Below, piece after piece: positions 3,666 through 58,133 of a stretch of 64,000 nucleotides of DNA. The DNA is from Escherichia phage vB_EcoM_G2469, in the sequence record MK327934.1. One strand, 5' to 3'. Under the pieces are notes generated by a model, which worked only from the letters and a program-made list of their open reading frames with translations, was not told the origin of the DNA and made no database searches. Each line of letters opens with the position of its first letter. Position 1 is the stretch's first letter. The translations under genes and the position numbers were made by a program.

Positions 3666-5480
3666 GGACATCCATTCTTTACGAAGTTCTGAATCATCAC
3701 CCATCAACATTTCAAAGAGTTCTTTCCAATTTTCAGGAAGTTTAACTACGTCGTACACAGGGTTCTGAATCATTTCACGATATTCTGACTTTTCAAGGGA
3801 GCCTAATCCCTTGATGTATCTAATACTATGCTTAGGCAGTGTATCTTCAACTTCTTCATACTCAGCTACAGTATAAAACCATTTTTGAGTTTTGCCAATT
3901 TGTGCAATAATTACAGGTGTTTTAACAAAGCGAATACGTCCTTGTTCAAACAATTCAGGCCAATTACTAAAGAAAGCAAGCAAAGCCGGATAGATACTTC
4001 CAAGACCGTCATGATCGGCATCGGTCATAATTGCAATATTACGATAGTTCGTATTCTCTGCCTTTTCACCAAGAATAAGACCTGTGATAGCACAGATATC
4101 AAAGAGCTCTTTGTTCTTCATCATATCAGCATATGACATACCCCAGCTATTCATCACCTTACCACGTAATGGGAATCCGCCGTGTAGTTCACGGTCACGA
4201 ACATCAATGAGATAACCAATTGCCGAATCACCTTCTGTTAAAAACAATGTCGTATCTGCATCTTTACCACATTGGTTAGCTTTAATATGCTTATGAACCT
4301 TAGCTTTAGTTGCCTTTTTAGCTGCTTTAGTTTCTGCAGCCTTTTCTGCCGCCAATTTACGAGCTAATGCTGCTTCAACAATAGGCATAATCAAGGCTTC
4401 GTTTTTAAGAAGTGCCTGAGCAATTTTCTTAGCATCTAATTGGATATGATTACGAATATCACCATACGTTGACGTTAAACGTTCTTTAGTCTGAGAATCA
4501 AAACGCATGTTGCTCATGTCTCTAATAAACATCAACATTGTGAGGCATTCTTTAACACGAGCTTTAGTGACTTCAATACCCTTATATTTCTTTTTAATAC
4601 CTGGCAAAAGATGTTCGCAGATATCATCCATTACACATTCAACATGATGACCACCATTTTTAGTATGGATGTTATTCACATAAGTTAAATGACGGAAGCC
4701 ATCTGGTGATGTTGTGAATGCTATAGAGACTTTATCATTTTCTTGAATGATGTTATCTTCACCAAATTGTTTAGCAAATCGTTTAAAATTACCATCAACC
4801 TTTTTACCATTAAATGTGAACTTGATATCAGGATAAACGACTGCCAATGTTTGAAGTCGGTCTAAAGTAATATCTAAATAAATTTGAGATAAATTATGCT
4901 CTTCAAATGAAGAGAAATCAGGAGTGAAGATTACTTTAGTGCCTTTACCTTTAGATTTCTTAGAAGACCATGATTTGTTTTCCATTCCGTTTGAACAGTT
5001 AACAGTGATTTCGTTTTCGCCATCTGACGTGATGCCTGTAAACAACGTAGAGAAGATATTAGTTAAACTACTCCCGACGCCGTTCATACCACCAGTCTTG
5101 CGTTCAGAGTCATCACCAAAGTTACCACCGGCCTTTGGAATAGTCCAGGCTGCTACAGGCCCAGGAATTTGTTCACCTGTTTGGTCGGTAACTAAACCTT
5201 GAGGAATACCACGTCCGTTATCTTCCACCGAAACTTGATTATTTTTAATTTGCACATCAATTTTATTTGCAAACTTAAATGATGTACGAATAGCTTCATC
5301 AACCGAGTTGTCAATAATCTCATCGATTAATTTAACCAGACCAGGAACATATTCAACTTGTTGATATTTACCAAACAAAAAACGCTCATGGGCTTCTTTA
5401 GCAGAAGAACCAATATACATACCACTACGTTTCTTAATATGTTCTACATCTGACAATACCTTAATTTCATTTTTAATCAT
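3663..5480 (-). CDS. 39: DNA topoisomerase II large subunit, GyrB-like ATPase (fused 39+60 form)
   Basis: 605 aa; GHKL motif IIDNSVDEAIRT; uninterrupted ORF with no separate gene 60. Confidence 0.9.
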   Translation of the reverse strand: MIKNEIKVLSDVEHIKKRSGMYIGSSAKEAHERFLFGKYQQVEYVPGLVKLIDEIIDNSVDEAIRTSFKFANKIDVQIKNNQVSVEDNGRGIPQGLVTDQTGEQIPGPVAAWTIPKAGGNFGDDSERKTGGMNGVGSSLTNIFSTLFTGITSDGENEITVNCSNGMENKSWSSKKSKGKGTKVIFTPDFSSFEEHNLSQIYLDITLDRLQTLAVVYPDIKFTFNGKKVDGNFKRFAKQFGEDNIIQENDKVSIAFTTSPDGFRHLTYVNNIHTKNGGHHVECVMDDICEHLLPGIKKKYKGIEVTKARVKECLTMLMFIRDMSNMRFDSQTKERLTSTYGDIRNHIQLDAKKIAQALLKNEALIMPIVEAALARKLAAEKAAETKAAKKATKAKVHKHIKANQCGKDADTTLFLTEGDSAIGYLIDVRDRELHGGFPLRGKVMNSWGMSYADMMKNKELFDICAITGLILGEKAENTNYRNIAIMTDADHDGLGSIYPALLAFFSNWPELFEQGRIRFVKTPVIIAQIGKTQKWFYTVAEYEEVEDTLPKHSIRYIKGLGSLEKSEYREMIQNPVYDVVKLPENWKELFEMLMGDDSELRKEWMS

Positions 5481-5520
5481 GTTGTCTCCTCGTTATGAAG
5501 GTATTCTATCATTCGAAATC

Positions 5521-5545
5521 TAAAGCAAAAAGGGCCGAAGCCCTT
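5521..5545 (-). terminator. intrinsic terminator-like hairpin (gggc-UUCG-gccc) plus U-run
   Basis: aagggccgaagccctt preceded by A-run on plus strand, immediately after the stop of ORF 5544-5969. Confidence 0.5.
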
Positions 5546-5969
5546 ATTTAAATTTAATTTTCTGAAGTGCATCAATTGCAGCTAAACGCCCTTGTTCACT
5601 TTTAACTGTAATGACCACATCGCCTGATACGATCACCGAACCATCAACAAATTCTATAGAGCCTTTTTTGAAATCGACAGCTGTATCTGGTTCCGGAACT
5701 TCTTCAAAGAATTTAAATTCTGCACCATAAAGCAGAATATCACCTTGCATACTATGAATAGTTCGGCCATAATCGCCTACGGCTTCTACAGCAATAATCG
5801 AAACGCCGTAACCAATCATCTCTTCCACAATAAAATCTTTGGACAATAAAGTAGTATGCAGATTAGTATTAAGACGTTTACCAGTTGTATTAAGAATTCT
5901 CAAGAAATTATCTTCTTGTCCTTTGATAATACGATATTTCTTACCAACTTCAAAACCTTTAAAAGCCAT
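5544..5969 (-). CDS. hypothetical protein
   Basis: 141-aa ORF, ATG start, 2 nt after upstream stop. Confidence 0.5.
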   Translation of the reverse strand: MAFKGFEVGKKYRIIKGQEDNFLRILNTTGKRLNTNLHTTLLSKDFIVEEMIGYGVSIIAVEAVGDYGRTIHSMQGDILLYGAEFKFFEEVPEPDTAVDFKKGSIEFVDGSVIVSGDVVITVKSEQGRLAAIDALQKIKFK

Positions 5970-5971
5970 AA

Positions 5972-6151
5972 TTAACCCTTCTTAAGTAAGTCGTAAAAAC
6001 CACCGTTCACATGTTTAGGAGCAGAAACCCGACGAGTAGACAGACGATGACATTCAGGGCAAACATCGTTTTCTCGTTCAGAAATTCTTTTAATTTTTTC
6101 ATATTCATGACCACAATCTTCAGATTGGCATTTATAGTCGTATAACGGCAT
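5972..6151 (-). CDS. small zinc-ribbon protein (CxxxxC...CxxC), not in ORF track
   Basis: 59-aa ORF MPLYDYKCQSEDCGH...CPECH, ATG at 6149-6151; fills an otherwise empty 180-bp gap. Confidence 0.4.
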   Translation of the reverse strand: MPLYDYKCQSEDCGHEYEKIKRISERENDVCPECHRLSTRRVSAPKHVNGGFYDLLKKG

Positions 6152-6153
6152 TA

Positions 6154-6564
6154 TTATTCCTTAAAATGTGCTTTCAACATTTGATACAAAGACCATGCCT
6201 GGTCATTATTTTTGATAGTAATCGTCATCACAGGAAATTCAGACAATTCATCAAGTTCACCAGAATCTTGCTCTTCGGACGCTTGATACGGATTTTCAAC
6301 TTCGACAAAGAACTCTGCTTCATTCGTGGAAAGCCAGATAAAGTTTTCATCAAGGATATCACCGCCTGATGCATATCCAACCATGCCAGTAGATGTCACA
6401 ATTTTGGTAGGACGTCCAAGATGGTCAACATCTAATACTTTAAATGGTTCCATGCCAAGACGTCGTGCATAAATCCCATTATCAGTGTGGTCTTTAATAA
6501 ACTCTTCTTGGGCACGTTTATCTATAAATTGGTACCATGAGTTAACGCGGAATTTATTAGCCAT
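6154..6564 (-). CDS. hypothetical protein
   Basis: track ORF starts at TTG; internal ATG at 6562-6564 preceded by ggaagga SD; 136 aa. Confidence 0.5.
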
Positions 6565-6791
6565 TAGTAAGTTTCCTTCCAATAAGTTGTACCGTTTTCA
6601 GTGATTTCACGGAAGATACCATAGATAGGCATTTCATCACCGAGTTTTTCGTAAACGTAAACCACTTCAGTGTAGCATAAAAATTCGGTCCAGTTTTTCT
6701 GTACAACAACTAAATCAGGATTAAACAGAACATCTTCAAACTCATCGATGTTTGAATCAGTAGTTACGTTTTTAATGATTTGACGTTTCAT
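6564..6791 (-). CDS. hypothetical protein
   Basis: start moved to ATG at 6789-6791 with aggag SD; upstream part of track ORF is promoter read-through. Confidence 0.45.
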
Positions 6792-6819
6792 AATATTCTC
6801 CTCTTGTTTTGATAGGTCT

Positions 6820-6849
6820 ATAGTATCATAGACCATAGTTGTTGTACAT
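6820..6849 (-). promoter_or_regulatory. early-type sigma70 promoter (TGTACA -35, TACTAT -10)
   Basis: 17-bp spacing; conserved gataggtctata element with local inverted repeat. Confidence 0.45.
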
Positions 6850-7373
6850 CATTTTAGCAAAATAAAATCAACTTGTTCTGCCAATGAACGTCTGAACATT
6901 AATTGATAACTTCCGAGGATGAAATCAGGTGCTTCATAGACCGCGATGTAGTATCCTTTAGCTTTCAAGAGTTTAACATCCACCTGGTCATCAAACCATG
7001 CATAAACCGCGTCAACACTTTCAAATCCAAAATAGAACCCTTGAGCCCAATCTTCACTCAATTCAAATGTGTGCTCAATTCTATAGTATCTTAAGATATT
7101 TTGTTCAAGGAGTTTGTCTTCATTTACTGTAGGACGATTAGGGACATTATAGTTGTCACCGTGATGGTAGAAGTTACCTGAGATTATTCCATGTTTATCA
7201 AGGAACTCCCATGTTTCTTCAGAGTTGTCGGTGCCCGACCAACCGTACGGCGAGCGAGGTTCTTTATTCCAAGAGGTTTCCCAAATTCTGACGGCTTTAC
7301 CGTCTTCGATAGCAATTCCTGGTAATGATTCACGTTGAGTACAAAAACTACGTTCTACGCGGTAAACTAACAT
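6849..7373 (-). CDS. hypothetical protein
   Basis: 174-aa ORF, ATG start, gaggag SD. Confidence 0.55.
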   Translation of the reverse strand: MLVYRVERSFCTQRESLPGIAIEDGKAVRIWETSWNKEPRSPYGWSGTDNSEETWEFLDKHGIISGNFYHHGDNYNVPNRPTVNEDKLLEQNILRYYRIEHTFELSEDWAQGFYFGFESVDAVYAWFDDQVDVKLLKAKGYYIAVYEAPDFILGSYQLMFRRSLAEQVDFILLK

Positions 7374-7398
7374 ATTATTCTCCTCTGGTTAATATGGT

Positions 7399-7427
7399 TA
7401 TAATATCAAAACCGGAGGAGAAGTAAA
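7399..7427 (-). promoter_or_regulatory. early-type promoter GTTTAC-N17-TATTAT
   Basis: minus-strand GTTTAC ttctcctccggttttga TATTAT; spacer ttctcctc is complementary to downstream SD gaggagaa. Confidence 0.5.
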
Positions 7428-7432
7428 CAACT

Positions 7433-7852
7433 TTATGCGAAAGCAGCTGGGCTATATTTTTTAATTTGGAATTCAGGAACTACCATGAACTGTCCAGCGA
7501 AAACGATGTTATAAAGCTTAACACCATCTTCTACCCAACGGTCGCTAATAAATCCGGCGATTTGCTTAGTTTTCCACGGTGTTCCATCAGTTGCCGCAGC
7601 AATAGTGAATTCATGGTCTTTTTCAACAGAAACTGATCTGCATAGTCCCCATTTGAACGCTTTTTCTTCTGGTTCAATGAATTGGCTTTTAACGTAACCA
7701 ATGTTACCATCAGCATCACGAACTTTAACTTCGTTACGTCCAAAAACCGGATCACTCGCAGAAAGAACTTCAACCAACTTCCCGGCAACTTTAGAGCGAG
7801 AAGCAACAGATACATATACGTAATCACCTGTAGAGAGATTTACAATATTCAT
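7433..7852 (-). CDS. hypothetical protein, tandem paralog 1 of 3
   Basis: 139 aa; shares C-terminal motif QWVEDGxxLYNIVFAGxFxVV with the two ORFs upstream. Confidence 0.6.
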   Translation of the reverse strand: MNIVNLSTGDYVYVSVASRSKVAGKLVEVLSASDPVFGRNEVKVRDADGNIGYVKSQFIEPEEKAFKWGLCRSVSVEKDHEFTIAAATDGTPWKTKQIAGFISDRWVEDGVKLYNIVFAGQFMVVPEFQIKKYSPAAFA

Positions 7853-7861
7853 AATAATTCC

Positions 7862-8326
7862 TTAAGCTTTACGAGGAGACACATAGCGAGTGATTTCAGA
7901 TTCTTTAACAACTCGGAAGTCACCTAAGAATACGATATTGTATAACTTTTCACCATCTTCAACCCATTGGTCACTAATGAAGCCACACATAGTATCAGTT
8001 TTGCTTGGATAACCGTATTCATCGATGAAGTCAAATTCTTTATCAGTCTGGAATTCAACACCTTTACACAAGGCCCATTTGAACTGTGTAGTAGGCTCAA
8101 CGATATCGCTTGAAGCAAAGTGGGCACTTACACGAGTTTCCAAGAATTTAGGACTTACGTAAGCATACTGGGCATCTTGTCCGCCAAAACTTGGGATGAT
8201 TCGAACTTTAACTTCTTTAACACGTCCCATGCCGTTAGTACGAAGCCCTGCTACTTCAACCAGACGACCTGCAGCTTTAGAACGAGAAGCAGGAGATACA
8301 CGAAGGATTTCACCAATAGTAATCAT
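7862..8326 (-). CDS. hypothetical protein, tandem paralog 2 of 3
   Basis: 154 aa; shared N-terminal SRSKAAG and C-terminal QWVEDG motifs. Confidence 0.6.
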   Translation of the reverse strand: MITIGEILRVSPASRSKAAGRLVEVAGLRTNGMGRVKEVKVRIIPSFGGQDAQYAYVSPKFLETRVSAHFASSDIVEPTTQFKWALCKGVEFQTDKEFDFIDEYGYPSKTDTMCGFISDQWVEDGEKLYNIVFLGDFRVVKESEITRYVSPRKA

Positions 8327-8354
8327 AATTTCTCTCTTTGTTTAAATTGAATTC

Positions 8355-8384
8355 ACTATACTCCATCCATCCTTGGATGTACAA
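8355..8384 (-). promoter_or_regulatory. early-type promoter (TGTACA -35, TATAGT -10) with ccaaggatgg spacer element
   Basis: read on minus strand upstream of paralog 2. Confidence 0.45.
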
Positions 8385-8386
8385 CA

Positions 8387-8881
8387 TTAATTAAGGATAC
8401 TAACCACAGCACTACGTGGAACTACACTAAAATCACCTGCATGAACAACGTTCAGAAGTTCAACACCGTCTTCAATCCATTGGTCAGTTACCCATCCACT
8501 CACTGGACCTGCGAACGGACGTCGAATTGAAACAGCTTTACACAACAAATCAGTAGGCTCAATAGGCTTAATCAGAGTACCGTACATACAAGCGATATCC
8601 ATATCAATACAGATATCTTTAACGGGTTCTACTTCTTCAATCAACAGTTCAAAGTCGGTGCTTGGAAGGGCGGTAGTAGAAATTGTACCATATGAATTTT
8701 TAATTTCTAAGAATAACCAAGGGCCTTCAGCTTGTTTGATGAAGTTAACAATAGTGAAACTATTACCTTGAGTGGCACCTAAAATTTCACAAAACTTTTC
8801 ATAAGCTCGCACTGAAGCACCGTACCAGTTGATTTGTTTTTCGTCTTTCAGGATGTAAGTAGCCGTAGTATTGATATTCAT
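8387..8881 (-). CDS. hypothetical protein, tandem paralog 3 of 3
   Basis: 164 aa; C-terminal QWIEDGVELLNVVHAGDFSVV. Confidence 0.6.
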   Translation of the reverse strand: MNINTTATYILKDEKQINWYGASVRAYEKFCEILGATQGNSFTIVNFIKQAEGPWLFLEIKNSYGTISTTALPSTDFELLIEEVEPVKDICIDMDIACMYGTLIKPIEPTDLLCKAVSIRRPFAGPVSGWVTDQWIEDGVELLNVVHAGDFSVVPRSAVVSILN

Positions 8882-8912
8882 AATGTTTTTCCTGTTTGGT
8901 TAAGATAGAAAG

Positions 8913-8942
8913 ATTATACTCCAACCATCCTTGGTTGTAAAC
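8913..8942 (-). promoter_or_regulatory. early-type promoter GTTTAC-N18-TATAAT
   Basis: minus strand GTTTAC aaccaaggatggttggag TATAAT upstream of paralog 3. Confidence 0.55.
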
Positions 8943-8947
8943 TGATT

Positions 8948-9625
8948 TTATCGCTGTTTTACACTTAACGGGTCAGGATTCTCAGGGACATCTTCAAGGC
9001 CAAGCGCATAACGCTGAGCATATTTTAACATCAAAATATCTTTAGCACAATCATGAATACTATCATGGGCAACGAATCCTTTTAGCGTACCCATCGGTAA
9101 TGGACACATACTTAATCCTCGTGTCAACGAGTAAGCTTCGATTGCCGTACGAATATCGCGTTGAGCCCAGAATTTAACAGGTTCTAATTTATCAGTATCG
9201 ATCTCTGGTTCAAGAACACCTTCATCACGATAGAGGTCACGAATCAAATCGACCAAGATCGGGAAGTCAAAGCTCATACCACGGCACCACATCTGTGATT
9301 TCCATTGGTCAACTTTATTAGCTCGACAATAATCTAAAAAGATTTTAATGCCTTCAAGCGTAGTGACATCGTCTTCAGACGGAGCCAAGTTTTTACGTGC
9401 TTCAGCCGATTGTTCTTTCCACCATTTCATAGTGGATTTAGCGAAAACTCGCTTCCCTTTCTGAGAAGCTAAATTAAATTTAATTCGCTTACCTCGTTGA
9501 ACAAGTTCTTCAAATGATTCAACAACTTCAGGGTCGGAATTATATGCAATAACCGCAAGGTCAATAACAGCCGCTTTTGATGTATTGCCGAATGTTTCAA
9601 AATCTATAATAACATCAGTGCTCAT
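8948..9625 (-). CDS. dexA: exonuclease A, DnaQ-like 3'-5' exonuclease
   Basis: 225 aa; N-terminal IIDFETFG exonuclease motif; sits just before dda as in T4. Confidence 0.8.
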   Translation of the reverse strand: MSTDVIIDFETFGNTSKAAVIDLAVIAYNSDPEVVESFEELVQRGKRIKFNLASQKGKRVFAKSTMKWWKEQSAEARKNLAPSEDDVTTLEGIKIFLDYCRANKVDQWKSQMWCRGMSFDFPILVDLIRDLYRDEGVLEPEIDTDKLEPVKFWAQRDIRTAIEAYSLTRGLSMCPLPMGTLKGFVAHDSIHDCAKDILMLKYAQRYALGLEDVPENPDPLSVKQR

Positions 9626-9634
9626 AATTTTCTC

Positions 9635-10948
9635 TCAAATAAAATGGACGTCAAAACGACCACGAGTCGTGCCTACATACAATAACTGTTTAGCTAATTC
9701 TGAATCAGCATAATGGATACACGGTGTATAAACAAAGGCCGTGTCAACAGACATACCCTGGGCCTTATGGAAGGTTGATACTGGTAGTGCCTTCACCTTA
9801 GTGAACATACGTTTAGCATCCCAGAATTCGCTCCATGGAGCTTTACCACCTTTATTCCAAAATTTGTATGTTTCTGCGGTCTTAGCCAAAAACAAATTGA
9901 ATTTATAAAGCTCTTCTTCGGAAGAAATAACCTTTATATCTTCGCGGACGTATTCTTCATCATTGCCATATGTTTCTACTGTAAGATTCCAGTATCGTAT
10001 CATATATTCGCCTGAAACACCACGTGCTTTAACGAATGTAGACGTTTCTACAGCATCTCGAATACGAACGAATTGCCCGTTATTGAAAAGCATTTCGGTC
10101 ATATTTTTACCATCTAGCTTATATGTCTTAGTAAATGGCTCTTGTAGAACAATGACTTCGTCTTTAATAAATGGTTTTTCTGTTTCAAGAAGTTTTCGGC
10201 GAATAATTGAATTTAACTTGTCCACCGACTTATTTGTGAATGCCATCATTCGATTTTCGAAAAGGTCTTCAGGAGTTTTAACAACGTTAAAATAGTTCAT
10301 CATATACGATTTAAGGTCTGTATATCCATGAACACCGTGCCCATCAACTACTTTATCGTAAATCCATTTGCCATTACGAATATCAGTCGCAACATCAATA
10401 ATTGGTGCATTGCTACGTTTAACTTCTGTAAGGTCGCATTGCACAAAGTCTTTGTGAGTGAAGAAAGGACTTAGATACGCAGTTGATTCGCCTGGGTCTA
10501 CCGGACGAATCTGGCATCGGTCGCCGATTCCAATTACTGTACACCATTTAGGGATACTAGCTAACATTATTTTAAACAGAGAACGGTCGCACATTGACGC
10601 TTCATCAAATAACAGTACACGACACAAGGCTAAGTCGGGAACCTTTTTCTGTTCAAACAATACGTTTTCTTCGTATGTAGTTGGGTTGATTTTAAGAATG
10701 CTATGAATAGTCGATGCTTCTTGACCCGCAAGTTTGCTTAGAACCTTTTTAGCAGCATGTGTAGGGGCTGCTAAAATAATACCTGATTCTCCAGAAGAAA
10801 TAAGGGCTTCAACGATGAATCTAGTAAGGGTTGTTTTACCTGTACCAGCAGGCCCATTAATAGTTACGTGATGTTTCTTTTCTTTAATAGCGTTCATAAC
10901 AACGTTGAAGGCGTTTTTCTGGCCTTCAGTCAAATCATCAAATGTCAT
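9635..10948 (-). CDS. dda: Dda DNA helicase (SF1B)
   Basis: 437 aa; near-identical N-terminus to T4 Dda (MTFDDLTEGQKNAFN...GPAGTGKTT). Confidence 0.95.
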   Translation of the reverse strand: MTFDDLTEGQKNAFNVVMNAIKEKKHHVTINGPAGTGKTTLTRFIVEALISSGESGIILAAPTHAAKKVLSKLAGQEASTIHSILKINPTTYEENVLFEQKKVPDLALCRVLLFDEASMCDRSLFKIMLASIPKWCTVIGIGDRCQIRPVDPGESTAYLSPFFTHKDFVQCDLTEVKRSNAPIIDVATDIRNGKWIYDKVVDGHGVHGYTDLKSYMMNYFNVVKTPEDLFENRMMAFTNKSVDKLNSIIRRKLLETEKPFIKDEVIVLQEPFTKTYKLDGKNMTEMLFNNGQFVRIRDAVETSTFVKARGVSGEYMIRYWNLTVETYGNDEEYVREDIKVISSEEELYKFNLFLAKTAETYKFWNKGGKAPWSEFWDAKRMFTKVKALPVSTFHKAQGMSVDTAFVYTPCIHYADSELAKQLLYVGTTRGRFDVHFI

Positions 10949-11256
10949 CGTAAAGTCCCTGCAATTGGAATACTAACAATACGGCCTGTGTCCAGGATTC
11001 GTTGATACAATCTTTGCGTCTCCGCATCTAGTTTAACGTGTTTCATTTCAAGCTTATTAAACCAGAACTTACGCGGAGTTTCGACCATTCTTAGAACTCC
11101 CATTTTTAAATCTGTTTTATACTGTGTTTTCAAAGTATCGAAAACTTTATCTGCAATATCCTTTCTAAAAAATACTGCAGGACGATGTTCATCAAGTGGA
11201 ACCGGGACAGTAAATCCTTCCATATCTCGATAAACTATTGCATATACATAAACCAT
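10945..11256 (-). CDS. hypothetical protein (dda.1 position)
   Basis: 103-aa ORF, ATG start, 4-nt overlap with dda. Confidence 0.5.
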   Translation of the reverse strand: MVYVYAIVYRDMEGFTVPVPLDEHRPAVFFRKDIADKVFDTLKTQYKTDLKMGVLRMVETPRKFWFNKLEMKHVKLDAETQRLYQRILDTGRIVSIPIAGTLR

Positions 11257-11258
11257 AA

Positions 11259-12005
11259 TTAACCTTTAATCAGTTGGAATAATGATGCGCTAAGTGGTAA
11301 GCCACGTTTCAATTTTAATTTACCAATGAAACTAATCTTTTCAAAACGTTGCAGACCTTGGATAACTTTATCATATGTATCGAAAAGCGATTCAGCGTCA
11401 GTTAATTTAGTTTTAGTTTTCCAGTCAGAGCCTTTAAGAAGAACGTTTAGTTTAGTAAGTTCATGGCCTTCTGCTTGATGTGAGCCATTAATGCGTGCTT
11501 TCAAAGCAACAATTCTAAGTTTAGATTCGTTAGATAAAGGTTGATTTTTCATCATGTTCGCCATATGCTTAACACGATTTTCACGTTTTGCTCGGATTTT
11601 TAAAATAGTACCATAAACATTTTTAATTTGGGCCCATTTCTTCTCGTCGAGATTAAGTTTCTCTACTTTACGGGCAGAAGGATTAGCGATACGTCTTGCA
11701 ATGGCATCACGTTTCACAATAAGTTCTTCTAATGTTAAATCAGAACGAGCAGTGTTATATTTTTTCTTAACCGGGATAACATTACCTTTAATGTAGCCGA
11801 TATCGTTATTAAAACGTTCTAAAGATAATTTCTCACCTTCAACAGAGTTATTGAAAAATTCACCTGAGTAAGCGCAGACCTTTTGATCAAGAATGTTTTT
11901 AAGGTAATTAAAGTCTAAGTTAAAATCCTTAGAGCGTCTCTTCGCAGAAGCTCTGGTGTGGTCAAGACGACGATTGATTTTGTTAATTTTATTATTTGAT
12001 AACAT
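11259..12005 (-). CDS. hypothetical protein (T4 srd position)
   Basis: 248-aa basic protein; identity by position only. Confidence 0.5.
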   Translation of the reverse strand: MLSNNKINKINRRLDHTRASAKRRSKDFNLDFNYLKNILDQKVCAYSGEFFNNSVEGEKLSLERFNNDIGYIKGNVIPVKKKYNTARSDLTLEELIVKRDAIARRIANPSARKVEKLNLDEKKWAQIKNVYGTILKIRAKRENRVKHMANMMKNQPLSNESKLRIVALKARINGSHQAEGHELTKLNVLLKGSDWKTKTKLTDAESLFDTYDKVIQGLQRFEKISFIGKLKLKRGLPLSASLFQLIKG

Positions 12006-18786: not shown

Positions 18787-18816
18787 ACTATACTATAGTC
18801 CATCTATAATGTAAAC
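18787..18816 (-). promoter_or_regulatory. early-type promoter GTTTAC-N18-TATAGT
   Basis: -10 flanked by ggactac/gtagtcc-type inverted repeat. Confidence 0.5.
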
Positions 18817-43976: not shown

Positions 43977-44005
43977 ATAATAACATGTCTTCCTATCGTT
44001 GTACA
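43977..44005 (-). promoter_or_regulatory. early-type promoter (TGTACA -35, TATTAT -10)
   Basis: -10 flanked by gataggaaga/tcttcctatc inverted repeat. Confidence 0.45.
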
Positions 44006-51999: not shown

Positions 52000-52028
52000 A
52001 TTATACTCCAACCATCCTTGGTTGTACA
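52000..52028 (-). promoter_or_regulatory. early-type promoter (TGTACA -35, TATAAT -10) with ccaaggatgg spacer element
   Basis: same spacer element as at 8355 and 8913. Confidence 0.45.
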
Positions 52029-58075: not shown

Positions 58076-58104
58076 TTTGTTCTCCATTTGTTTTGATAGG
58101 ACTA

Positions 58105-58133
58105 CTATAACATAGTCCTATCAAGATGTAAAC
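58105..58133 (-). promoter_or_regulatory. early-type promoter GTTTAC-N17-TTATAG
   Basis: -10 flanked by gataggacta/tagtcctatc inverted repeat. Confidence 0.45.

Follow-up and report, generated by a model that had tools for sequence, protein, structure and literature searches.

Identity and gene order of the three genes

Analysis of positions 7433-8881 in the genome of Escherichia phage vB_EcoM_G2469 (MK327934.1) revealed three adjacent genes that are very probably the motB.1, motB and second-motB early cluster of a Mosigvirus (an RB69-like T4-type phage), with functions that are carried over provisionally from experiments on T4 MotB. All positions are those of the window, i.e. the whole 64,000-nucleotide (64 kb) stretch of DNA analysed. 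As an earlier note on this DNA had described, the three ORFs encode proteins of 139, 154 and 164 amino acids and lie side by side on the minus strand, at 7433-7852, 7862-8326 and 8387-8881, respectively. Sequence comparisons identify 7862-8326 as the ortholog of T4 MotB, 7433-7852 as a second MotB copy and 8387-8881 as the homolog of T4 MotB.1.

All three proteins matched the Pfam family PF17613 (MotB) above its gathering threshold of 25 bits, with 125.1 bits for the 154-aa protein (E=3e-36), 75.8 bits for the 139-aa protein (E=4.6e-21) and 36.0 bits for the 164-aa protein. MotB-like PHROG families were matched by the 139-aa protein (phrog_1671, 3.9e-51) and by the 164-aa protein (phrog_2333, 3e-82). 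The 154-aa protein, 100% identical to P0001 and G2469_00011, aligns with T4 MotB along its whole length (46% identity, E=1e-40). MotB is also the best T4 partner (38% identity) of the 139-aa protein, which is G2469_00010 and has RB69p010 as its counterpart. The 164-aa protein, identical to G2469_00012, is 38% identical to T4 MotB.1 (E=5e-27) over residues 3-136, N-terminal domain included. The 1.9 kb around the three genes shows 95-97% DNA identity to many Mosigvirus genomes (FL18, HX01, mar005P1 and others), where the three genes are annotated as MotB-like transcriptional regulators.

Every gene between 5.5 and 11 kb of the window is on the minus strand. The order of transcription in this interval is dda (9635-10948), dexA (8948-9625), the motB.1 homolog, motB, the second motB copy, a 174-aa motB.2 homolog (6849-7373; 34% identity to T4 MotB.2) as the next gene downstream of the 139-aa gene and, last, cef and goF downstream of the 174-aa ORF. 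The cluster sits in a non-essential early region, with dexA on one side and cef on the other. The earlier note had placed it where T4 has motB and dexA.x; the position agrees with the T4 motB cluster but not with dexA.x, as counterparts of T4 dexA.1 and dexA.2, which are located in the interval from dda to dexA, are missing here.

This arrangement is already published and routinely annotated. RB69 was reported to carry two motB genes and one motB.1, together with a 29-aa peptide (Patterson-West et al. 2021, PMC7827196, section 3.2), and the same authors divided MotB homologs, MotB.1 included, into classes with a common C-terminal domain and differing N-terminal domains (Patterson-West et al. 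2021, PMC7827196). Since these classes, the RB69 layout and the fold of MotB.1 (Kim et al. 2025) are in the literature, the present finding is a rediscovery. RB69 has the same genes in the same order (RB69p010, p011 and p012+p013), with coordinates within about 10 nt and DNA 96% identical over 6 kb. The RB69 reference motB.1 differs by two frameshifts, which split it into a 132-aa protein and the 29-aa peptide, whereas the gene is intact here at 164 aa. The 119-aa reference protein of T4 MotB.1 likewise differs in having no complete C-terminal domain, which the 164-aa protein does possess. The motB.1 gene is frameshifted in both the T4 and the RB69 reference genomes.

A shared C-terminal domain and two types of N-terminal domain

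The C-terminal motif D-x-W-(V/I)-E-D-G-x-x-L-x-N-(I/V)-V-x-x-G-x-F-x-V-V that had been read in all three ORFs was confirmed. Pairwise alignment, proposed earlier as a check, found shared motifs in all three proteins, and in the three-way alignment D104, W106, E108, D109, G110, L113, N115, V117, G120, F122, V124 and V125 were invariant. The second motif claimed for two ORFs, an N-terminal SRSK(A/V)AG stretch, was found in the 154- and 139-aa proteins. At the DNA level, the motif-coding stretch appears as a 39-nt repeat in three copies and the SRSK-coding stretch in two. Alignment of 44 family sequences revealed seven invariant residues (D133, W135, E137, G139, L142, N144 and V146), and the family core D-x-W-x-E-(D/E)-G-x-x-L-x-N-V-V...G-x-aromatic-x-V is present in all three proteins.

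The extent of similarity differs between the pairs. BLASTP aligned the 139- and 154-aa proteins over their full length (43% identity, E=2e-32). The 154- and 164-aa proteins matched only in the C-terminal part, i.e. the last ~35-40 residues (44% identity, E=3e-10). The match between the 139- and 164-aa proteins (32%, E=2e-11) was local, covering 79 columns and being clear only in the last ~25-30 residues. Six-frame scans of the whole 64 kb window gave the same picture: HMMs of the C-terminal domain matched exactly these three ORFs, and the HMM of the KOW-type N-terminal domain matched exactly two, the 154-aa (E=3.8e-33) and the 139-aa ORF (E=8.7e-20). A KOW-like N-terminal domain with SRSKAAG is thus a feature of the 154- and 139-aa proteins, as in MotB proper (category 1 of Patterson-West et al. 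2021); the 164-aa protein does not have it and is therefore filed under MotB.1 (category 2).

The C-terminal domain was delimited on the minus strand at 8390-8557 in motB.1 (aa 109-164, with five predicted beta strands) and at 7865-8089 in the motB ortholog (aa 80-154), in both cases by alignment, HMM and AF2, and at 7436-7660 in the second motB copy (aa 65-139) by alignment and HMM. The second copy follows the two-domain plan of the 154-aa protein, with a shortened N-terminal hairpin and linker. In MotB.1 the two domains are joined by a disordered linker (minus strand, 8558-8626; residues 86-108, pLDDT below 50) that contains an optional peptide module, DMDIACMYGTLIKP (strict match 8582-8605). 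This module is present, absent or shifted to the N-terminus in relatives, and no further copy of it was found in the 64 kb window.

Judged from these comparisons, the similarity among the three ORFs is real and far beyond chance. The description of the genes as a tandem triplet of paralogs is correct as to paralogy and overstated as to extent: duplication over the full length applies to the 139- and 154-aa genes alone, and the 164-aa gene shares just a C-terminal domain of ~35-55 aa. As the N-terminal domain of the latter is unrelated (MotB.1 type), its paralogy to the other two is at the level of the domain.

Promoters and transcription units

Promoters were searched for with a sigma-70 scan and with a T4-early pattern ((G)TTTAC-type -35, 16-18 nt spacer and TATAAT-type -10). 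Across the window, the T4-early-type pattern had 21 matches on the minus strand, which is the transcribed one, and two on the plus strand. A predicted early-type promoter of motB.1 lies at 8913-8942 on the minus strand (GTTTACA-17-TATAAT, 11/12), with a 6-bp dyad in its spacer (CAACCA-AGGA-TGGTTG). It is conserved in HX01 and RB69, and its 27-nt core recurs at 52000-52028. The predicted early-type promoter of the pair formed by motB and the second motB copy lies at 8355-8383 on the minus strand (TGTACA-17-TATAGT, 9/12) and also carries a spacer dyad (CATCCA-AGGA-TGGATG). Between the two promoters both arms of the dyad are changed and pairing is kept. The promoter and leader regions of motB and motB.1 form a 66-nt repeat with 71% identity. 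A 22-25 codon ORF at 8319-8387, annotated in HX01 as a modifier of transcription, was rejected as a gene-calling artefact; it coincides with the motB promoter, and some metagenome gene calls join it in frame to motB.

Upstream of the 139-aa gene, pattern scans detected no promoter of the early, middle or late type, and matches to the middle (MotA-box) and late (TATAAATA) patterns were also missing from the surroundings of all three genes. The 139-aa gene starts 9 nt past the motB stop. At this junction (minus strand, 7853-7864), which is without a promoter, the TAA stop overlaps an AAGGA Shine-Dalgarno sequence, and the 9-nt spacing is kept in RB69 and RB3. Because promoter patterns are missing before the 139-aa gene, motB and the second copy are probably co-transcribed as a bicistronic unit. 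Of the individual early promoters claimed for the three genes, those of motB.1 and motB were therefore borne out; the 139-aa gene is preceded by a Shine-Dalgarno sequence alone, and the third predicted promoter (minus strand, 7400-7427) lies 3' of that gene and serves the 174-aa motB.2 homolog downstream.

Copy number, distribution and hybrid proteins

A tblastn search with the C-terminal domain identified 1666 copies in 780 phage records. Copy number, which the earlier note had suggested comparing among relatives, varies from one to three among T4-like phages: three copies per Mosigvirus, two per Tequatrovirus or Dhakavirus and one in a Klebsiella Marfavirus. Of 766 records, 207 contained the 139-aa type with at least 80% identity; none had it at 60-80%, and otherwise it was absent, T4 and most Tequatroviruses included. 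In the Tequatrovirus RB3 a protein of the 139-aa type (89% identical) adjoins a Mosigvirus-like motB, which suggests that motB and the second copy move as a unit. An exhaustive profile search of 1.84 billion representatives returned only 35 clusters (50% identity). These were small phage-type proteins apart from P0269, an 842-aa repeat protein that was discarded as spurious, its match resulting from low-complexity repeats.

Hybrid proteins were found among the relatives. P0035 combines an N-terminal domain 89% identical to that of the 154-aa protein with a C-terminal domain 89% identical to that of the 139-aa protein, as expected for unequal crossing-over between tandem copies. In P0098 and P0036 a T4-type N-terminal domain (97-99% identical) is followed by a C-terminal domain of the 139- or the 154-aa type, and in a Marfavirus protein a KOW N-terminal domain is joined to a MotB.1-type C-terminal domain. 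Tandem duplication, loss and recombination within the linker between the domains may drive the evolution of the cluster.

Selection on the three genes

Comparison of orthologs gave dN/dS values of 0.03-0.14 for the second motB copy, 0.21-0.27 for motB and 0.18 for motB.1. By this measure all three genes are maintained under purifying selection, with the strongest constraint on the extra copy. Across genera the MotB.1-type C-terminal core is nearly identical at the protein level, and its third codon positions are only 58-65% identical, which shows that the constraint acts on the protein. The same divergence of third positions ruled out a nucleotide-level element hidden in the C-terminal coding stretch. 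An Rfam scan of 5400-11400 found only a sub-threshold Y_RNA match (27 bits vs 38), which was taken as chance.

These values bear on the suggestion that the genes diversified in the manner of anti-defence families. Under such an arms race each copy would neutralise a different immunity or silencing factor and would be under positive selection. The setting of the genes is compatible with this, as they occupy an early, non-essential and hyperplastic region, their copy number ranges from one to three among relatives, domain mosaics occur, and H-NS, to which T4 MotB is tied, is a xenogeneic silencer. However, gene-wide dN/dS is low (0.03-0.27) and lowest for the extra copy, the C-terminal core is nearly invariant between genera, PADLOC and NCBIfam model searches gave no matches and no defence-related model, and the literature reports no link between the MotB family and any defence system. 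The anti-defence interpretation of the divergence is thus not upheld, and we consider an arms-race family unlikely. The related claim of a host-takeover context fared better, given that all three proteins belong to the family of T4 MotB, which perturbs H-NS silencing (PMC6070864, PMC7827196).

The second copy might instead be a decaying duplicate of motB that serves no separate function. Deletions in the N-terminal hairpin and linker have made it shorter, it has no promoter of its own, its N-terminal domain is no longer basic, and it belongs to a type that T4 and most Tequatroviruses do not carry. Against this, its reading frame is intact in more than 200 genomes, its dN/dS is below that of motB itself, and its 9-nt coupling to motB is retained in RB69 and RB3. 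Decay is accordingly regarded as very improbable.

Predicted structures and charge

AF2 predicted for the 154-aa protein (pLDDT 81.6) an N-terminal beta domain, a disordered segment at 65-79 and a five-strand C-terminal domain. For the 164-aa protein (pLDDT 79.7) it predicted an alpha/beta barrel, a disordered segment at 86-108 and a five-strand C-terminal domain; the N-terminal domain consists of strands 8-11, 42-49, 55-61, 67-73 and 80-83 and one helix. Structure matches in BFVD were MotB.1, MotB and, weakly, GoF (E=0.027). A sequence HMM scan of the window found no GoF-type ORF, and a 141-aa ORF at 5547-5969 gave a weak match to phrog_2333 (0.0014). Neither single-protein nor profile searches against the sequences of solved structures returned anything below E=0.04. 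An SH3/Tudor-like barrel is inferred for the shared C-terminal domain, which is the sole part common by sequence to the 154- and 164-aa proteins; a caveat to this reading is that the N-terminal domains are barrels too.

The net charge of the N-terminal domain is +5 in the 154-aa protein, as in T4 MotB, and -1 in the 139-aa protein. That of the C-terminal domain is -4 in the 154-aa, +1 in the 139-aa and -2 in the 164-aa protein. At the level of the whole protein T4 MotB is basic (pI 9.2), the 154- and 139-aa copies are neutral (pI 6.6) and the MotB.1 homolog is acidic (pI 4.5). Because both MotB copies are neutral overall compared with the basic T4 protein, DNA coating may be weaker here than in T4, or confined to the N-terminal domain of the 154-aa protein. 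The charges together with the fold predictions suggest that DNA is bound by a part other than the shared C-terminal domain, and DNA coating would reside in the basic KOW domain.

Published work assigned the C-terminal domain by HHpred to a cold-shock/eIF5A OB-fold and ascribed possible DNA binding to either domain of MotB (PMC7827196). An alternative is therefore that the shared domain is a DNA-binding OB-fold with which all three proteins coat DNA, the N-terminal domains being accessory. Besides the HHpred assignment, it is in favour of this alternative that the C-terminal domain is the sole part common to all members; the near-neutral to acidic net charges of this domain (-4, +1 and -2), the pI of whole MotB.1 and the acidic and aromatic nature of the conserved core (D-Q-W-x-E-D-G) speak against it. 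We regard it as possible, with odds clearly against it.

Function in the light of T4 MotB

T4 MotB is an early protein of very high abundance, and its expression on its own is toxic to E. coli. Its DNA binding is non-specific and covers modified and unmodified DNA alike; co-purification of H-NS and StpA with it depends on the presence of DNA, and it alters the H-NS footprint. A total of 75 host genes are up-regulated by T4 MotB, about a third of them H-NS-repressed, and burst size rises modestly, an effect reported as a doubling (PMC6070864, PMC7827196). MotB.1 gave monomer and dimer bands, its N-terminal domain is an LSm-like barrel common to GoF and Frd.2, and deletion of T4 motB.1 had no laboratory phenotype (Kim et al. 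2025, PMC12152347). No RNA-related activity is reported in the literature for any MotB.1.

The functions of T4 MotB are transferred to its 154-aa ortholog, given that the N-terminal domains of the two proteins are equal in net charge. By analogy, the 154-aa protein would be made in large amounts within minutes of infection and would use its basic N-terminal domain to coat DNA irrespective of sequence. It would then shift H-NS on host DNA, so that part of the H-NS regulon would be de-repressed with a modest gain in burst size. The shared C-terminal domain, which is not basic, may serve the second copy and MotB.1 in a common interaction, be it with a partner protein or in self-association, and the differing N-terminal domains of the paralogs would give differing activities. 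Being acidic, MotB.1 is unlikely to coat DNA.

A more specific model is put forward only tentatively, and we consider it less likely than not. According to this model the C-terminal domain would be a Tudor/SH3-like docking or oligomerisation module and not an OB-fold. Its role would be to recruit the three different N-terminal effectors (the basic KOW domain, its neutral variant and the acidic LSm-like barrel) to a single conserved target, e.g. the H-NS/StpA-DNA filament or each other. The paralogs might then act as a mixed complex, with DMDIACMYGTLIKP as an extra docking motif.

Comparison with known systems and significance

T4 MotB (NP_049626) resembles the 154-aa protein in its KOW-like SRSKAAG N-terminal domain, C-terminal core, strand and dexA-cef neighbourhood. 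The 154-aa protein differs in being neutral and in having a shorter linker, and downstream of its gene lies a second copy, translationally coupled and missing from T4. [quoted passage not shown] T7 gp5.5 and T4 Arn, early proteins that relieve H-NS-dependent effects, are functional analogues only: they bind H-NS directly, whereas the association of T4 MotB with H-NS requires DNA (PMC7827196), and they have no relation in sequence or fold to the MotB proteins analysed here.

As a discovery the motB cluster carries little weight; it provides a useful consistency check on the published family, its domain categories and the RB69-like duplication. In experiments built on the 119-aa annotation of T4 MotB.1, the protein may have lacked the conserved domain of the family. 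The extra MotB copy is conserved, constrained and coupled to motB, and redundancy is thus to be weighed in work on MotB in Mosigvirus.

Gene order between dexA and cef

Comparison of the dexA-cef region revealed two gene orders. The genes are arranged as dexA - motB.2 - motB.1 - motB - cef in T4, RB3 and Dhakavirus E33, whereas dexA - motB.1 - motB - motB' (the second motB) - motB.2 - cef is the order in the window (6849-8881) and in RB69. The window thus differs from T4, RB3 and Dhakavirus E33 by a permuted gene order, while the strand is unchanged for all genes. An early promoter is found at the start of each permuted block.

Reading frames of motB.1, cef and a small ORF

The T4 reference motB.1 (NC_000866, 2690-2860, minus strand) has 119 amino acids and terminates in GGWVTDQWIGRWR before the stop codon. 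One additional G is present in this gene compared with both RB3 and the window (8387-8500 compared), and the remainder of the conserved domain, the C-terminal MotB-family domain common to MotB.1, MotB and MotB', continues after the 119-aa product in a different frame (EDGVELLNVVHAGEYSVVPRSAVVAILN, followed by a stop codon). An intact MotB.1 of 143 aa is encoded by re-sequenced T4 strains (ADJ39729, AIT74924 and AIT75196); this protein, UniRef D9IE42_BPT4, was found on 256 contigs. The MotB.1 examined in PMC12152347 is 13.8 kDa, which corresponds to the truncated T4 annotation. In the RB69 reference (NC_004928, 3877-4373) two frameshifts split motB.1 into a 132-aa ORF and the 29-aa peptide 'RB69p012'. 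Since the gene is intact at 164-165 aa in the window and in 180 cluster members, the published 29-aa 'category 3' peptide is the tail end of MotB.1.

The cef ORF as mechanically called (90 aa, 6564-6848) begins within the early promoter at 6820-6848. Because T4 Cef aligns to this ORF from residue 16 and RB69 cef is annotated at 6564-6791, cef in the window probably begins at an ATG further inside the ORF, at position 6791. A 25-codon ORF (MLYIQGWMEY..., 8319-8387, minus strand) is most likely an annotation artefact, as it overlaps the motB promoter; in HX01 this ORF carries the annotation of a 22-aa 'modifier of transcription', and some metagenome gene calls include it as an N-terminal extension of MotB, giving forms of 172-186 aa.

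Linker peptide module of MotB.1

In the 164-aa protein, the linker is disordered (8558-8626) and contains an optional peptide module (strict motif at 8582-8605) with the consensus D(M/F)D(I/V/L)(A/V)(C/S)(M/T)Y(G/V)T(L/P)(I/V)KP. The MotB.1 forms of 143-145 aa lack this module, and in the relatives of 180-250 aa it is placed N-terminal to the barrel domain. The module may be a short docking motif.

Early promoters and their inverted repeats

Three early promoters on the minus strand have a near-identical 27-nt core in common, and in each the spacer contains a perfect 6-bp dyad: CAACCA-AGGA-TGGTTG at 8913-8941 and 52000-52028, and CATCCA-AGGA-TGGATG at the motB promoter (8355-8383). The two versions differ on both arms, so that pairing is preserved. 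Among 21 candidate early promoters on the minus strand of the window (for example 58104-58132, 43977-44005, 6820-6848 and 18787-18815, all of the early-type pattern), eight contain a 6-12 bp inverted repeat; in the control, 6.5% of shuffled sequences contain one. Stems reach 12 bp at the candidates at 58104 and 43977. The arms often flank the -10 hexamer on both sides, and the TAGACCTATCAA motif lies downstream in many of the candidates. Promoter-early stem-loop cassettes are described in RB49-type phages, and the inverted repeats at the candidate early promoters of the window are reminiscent of these cassettes.
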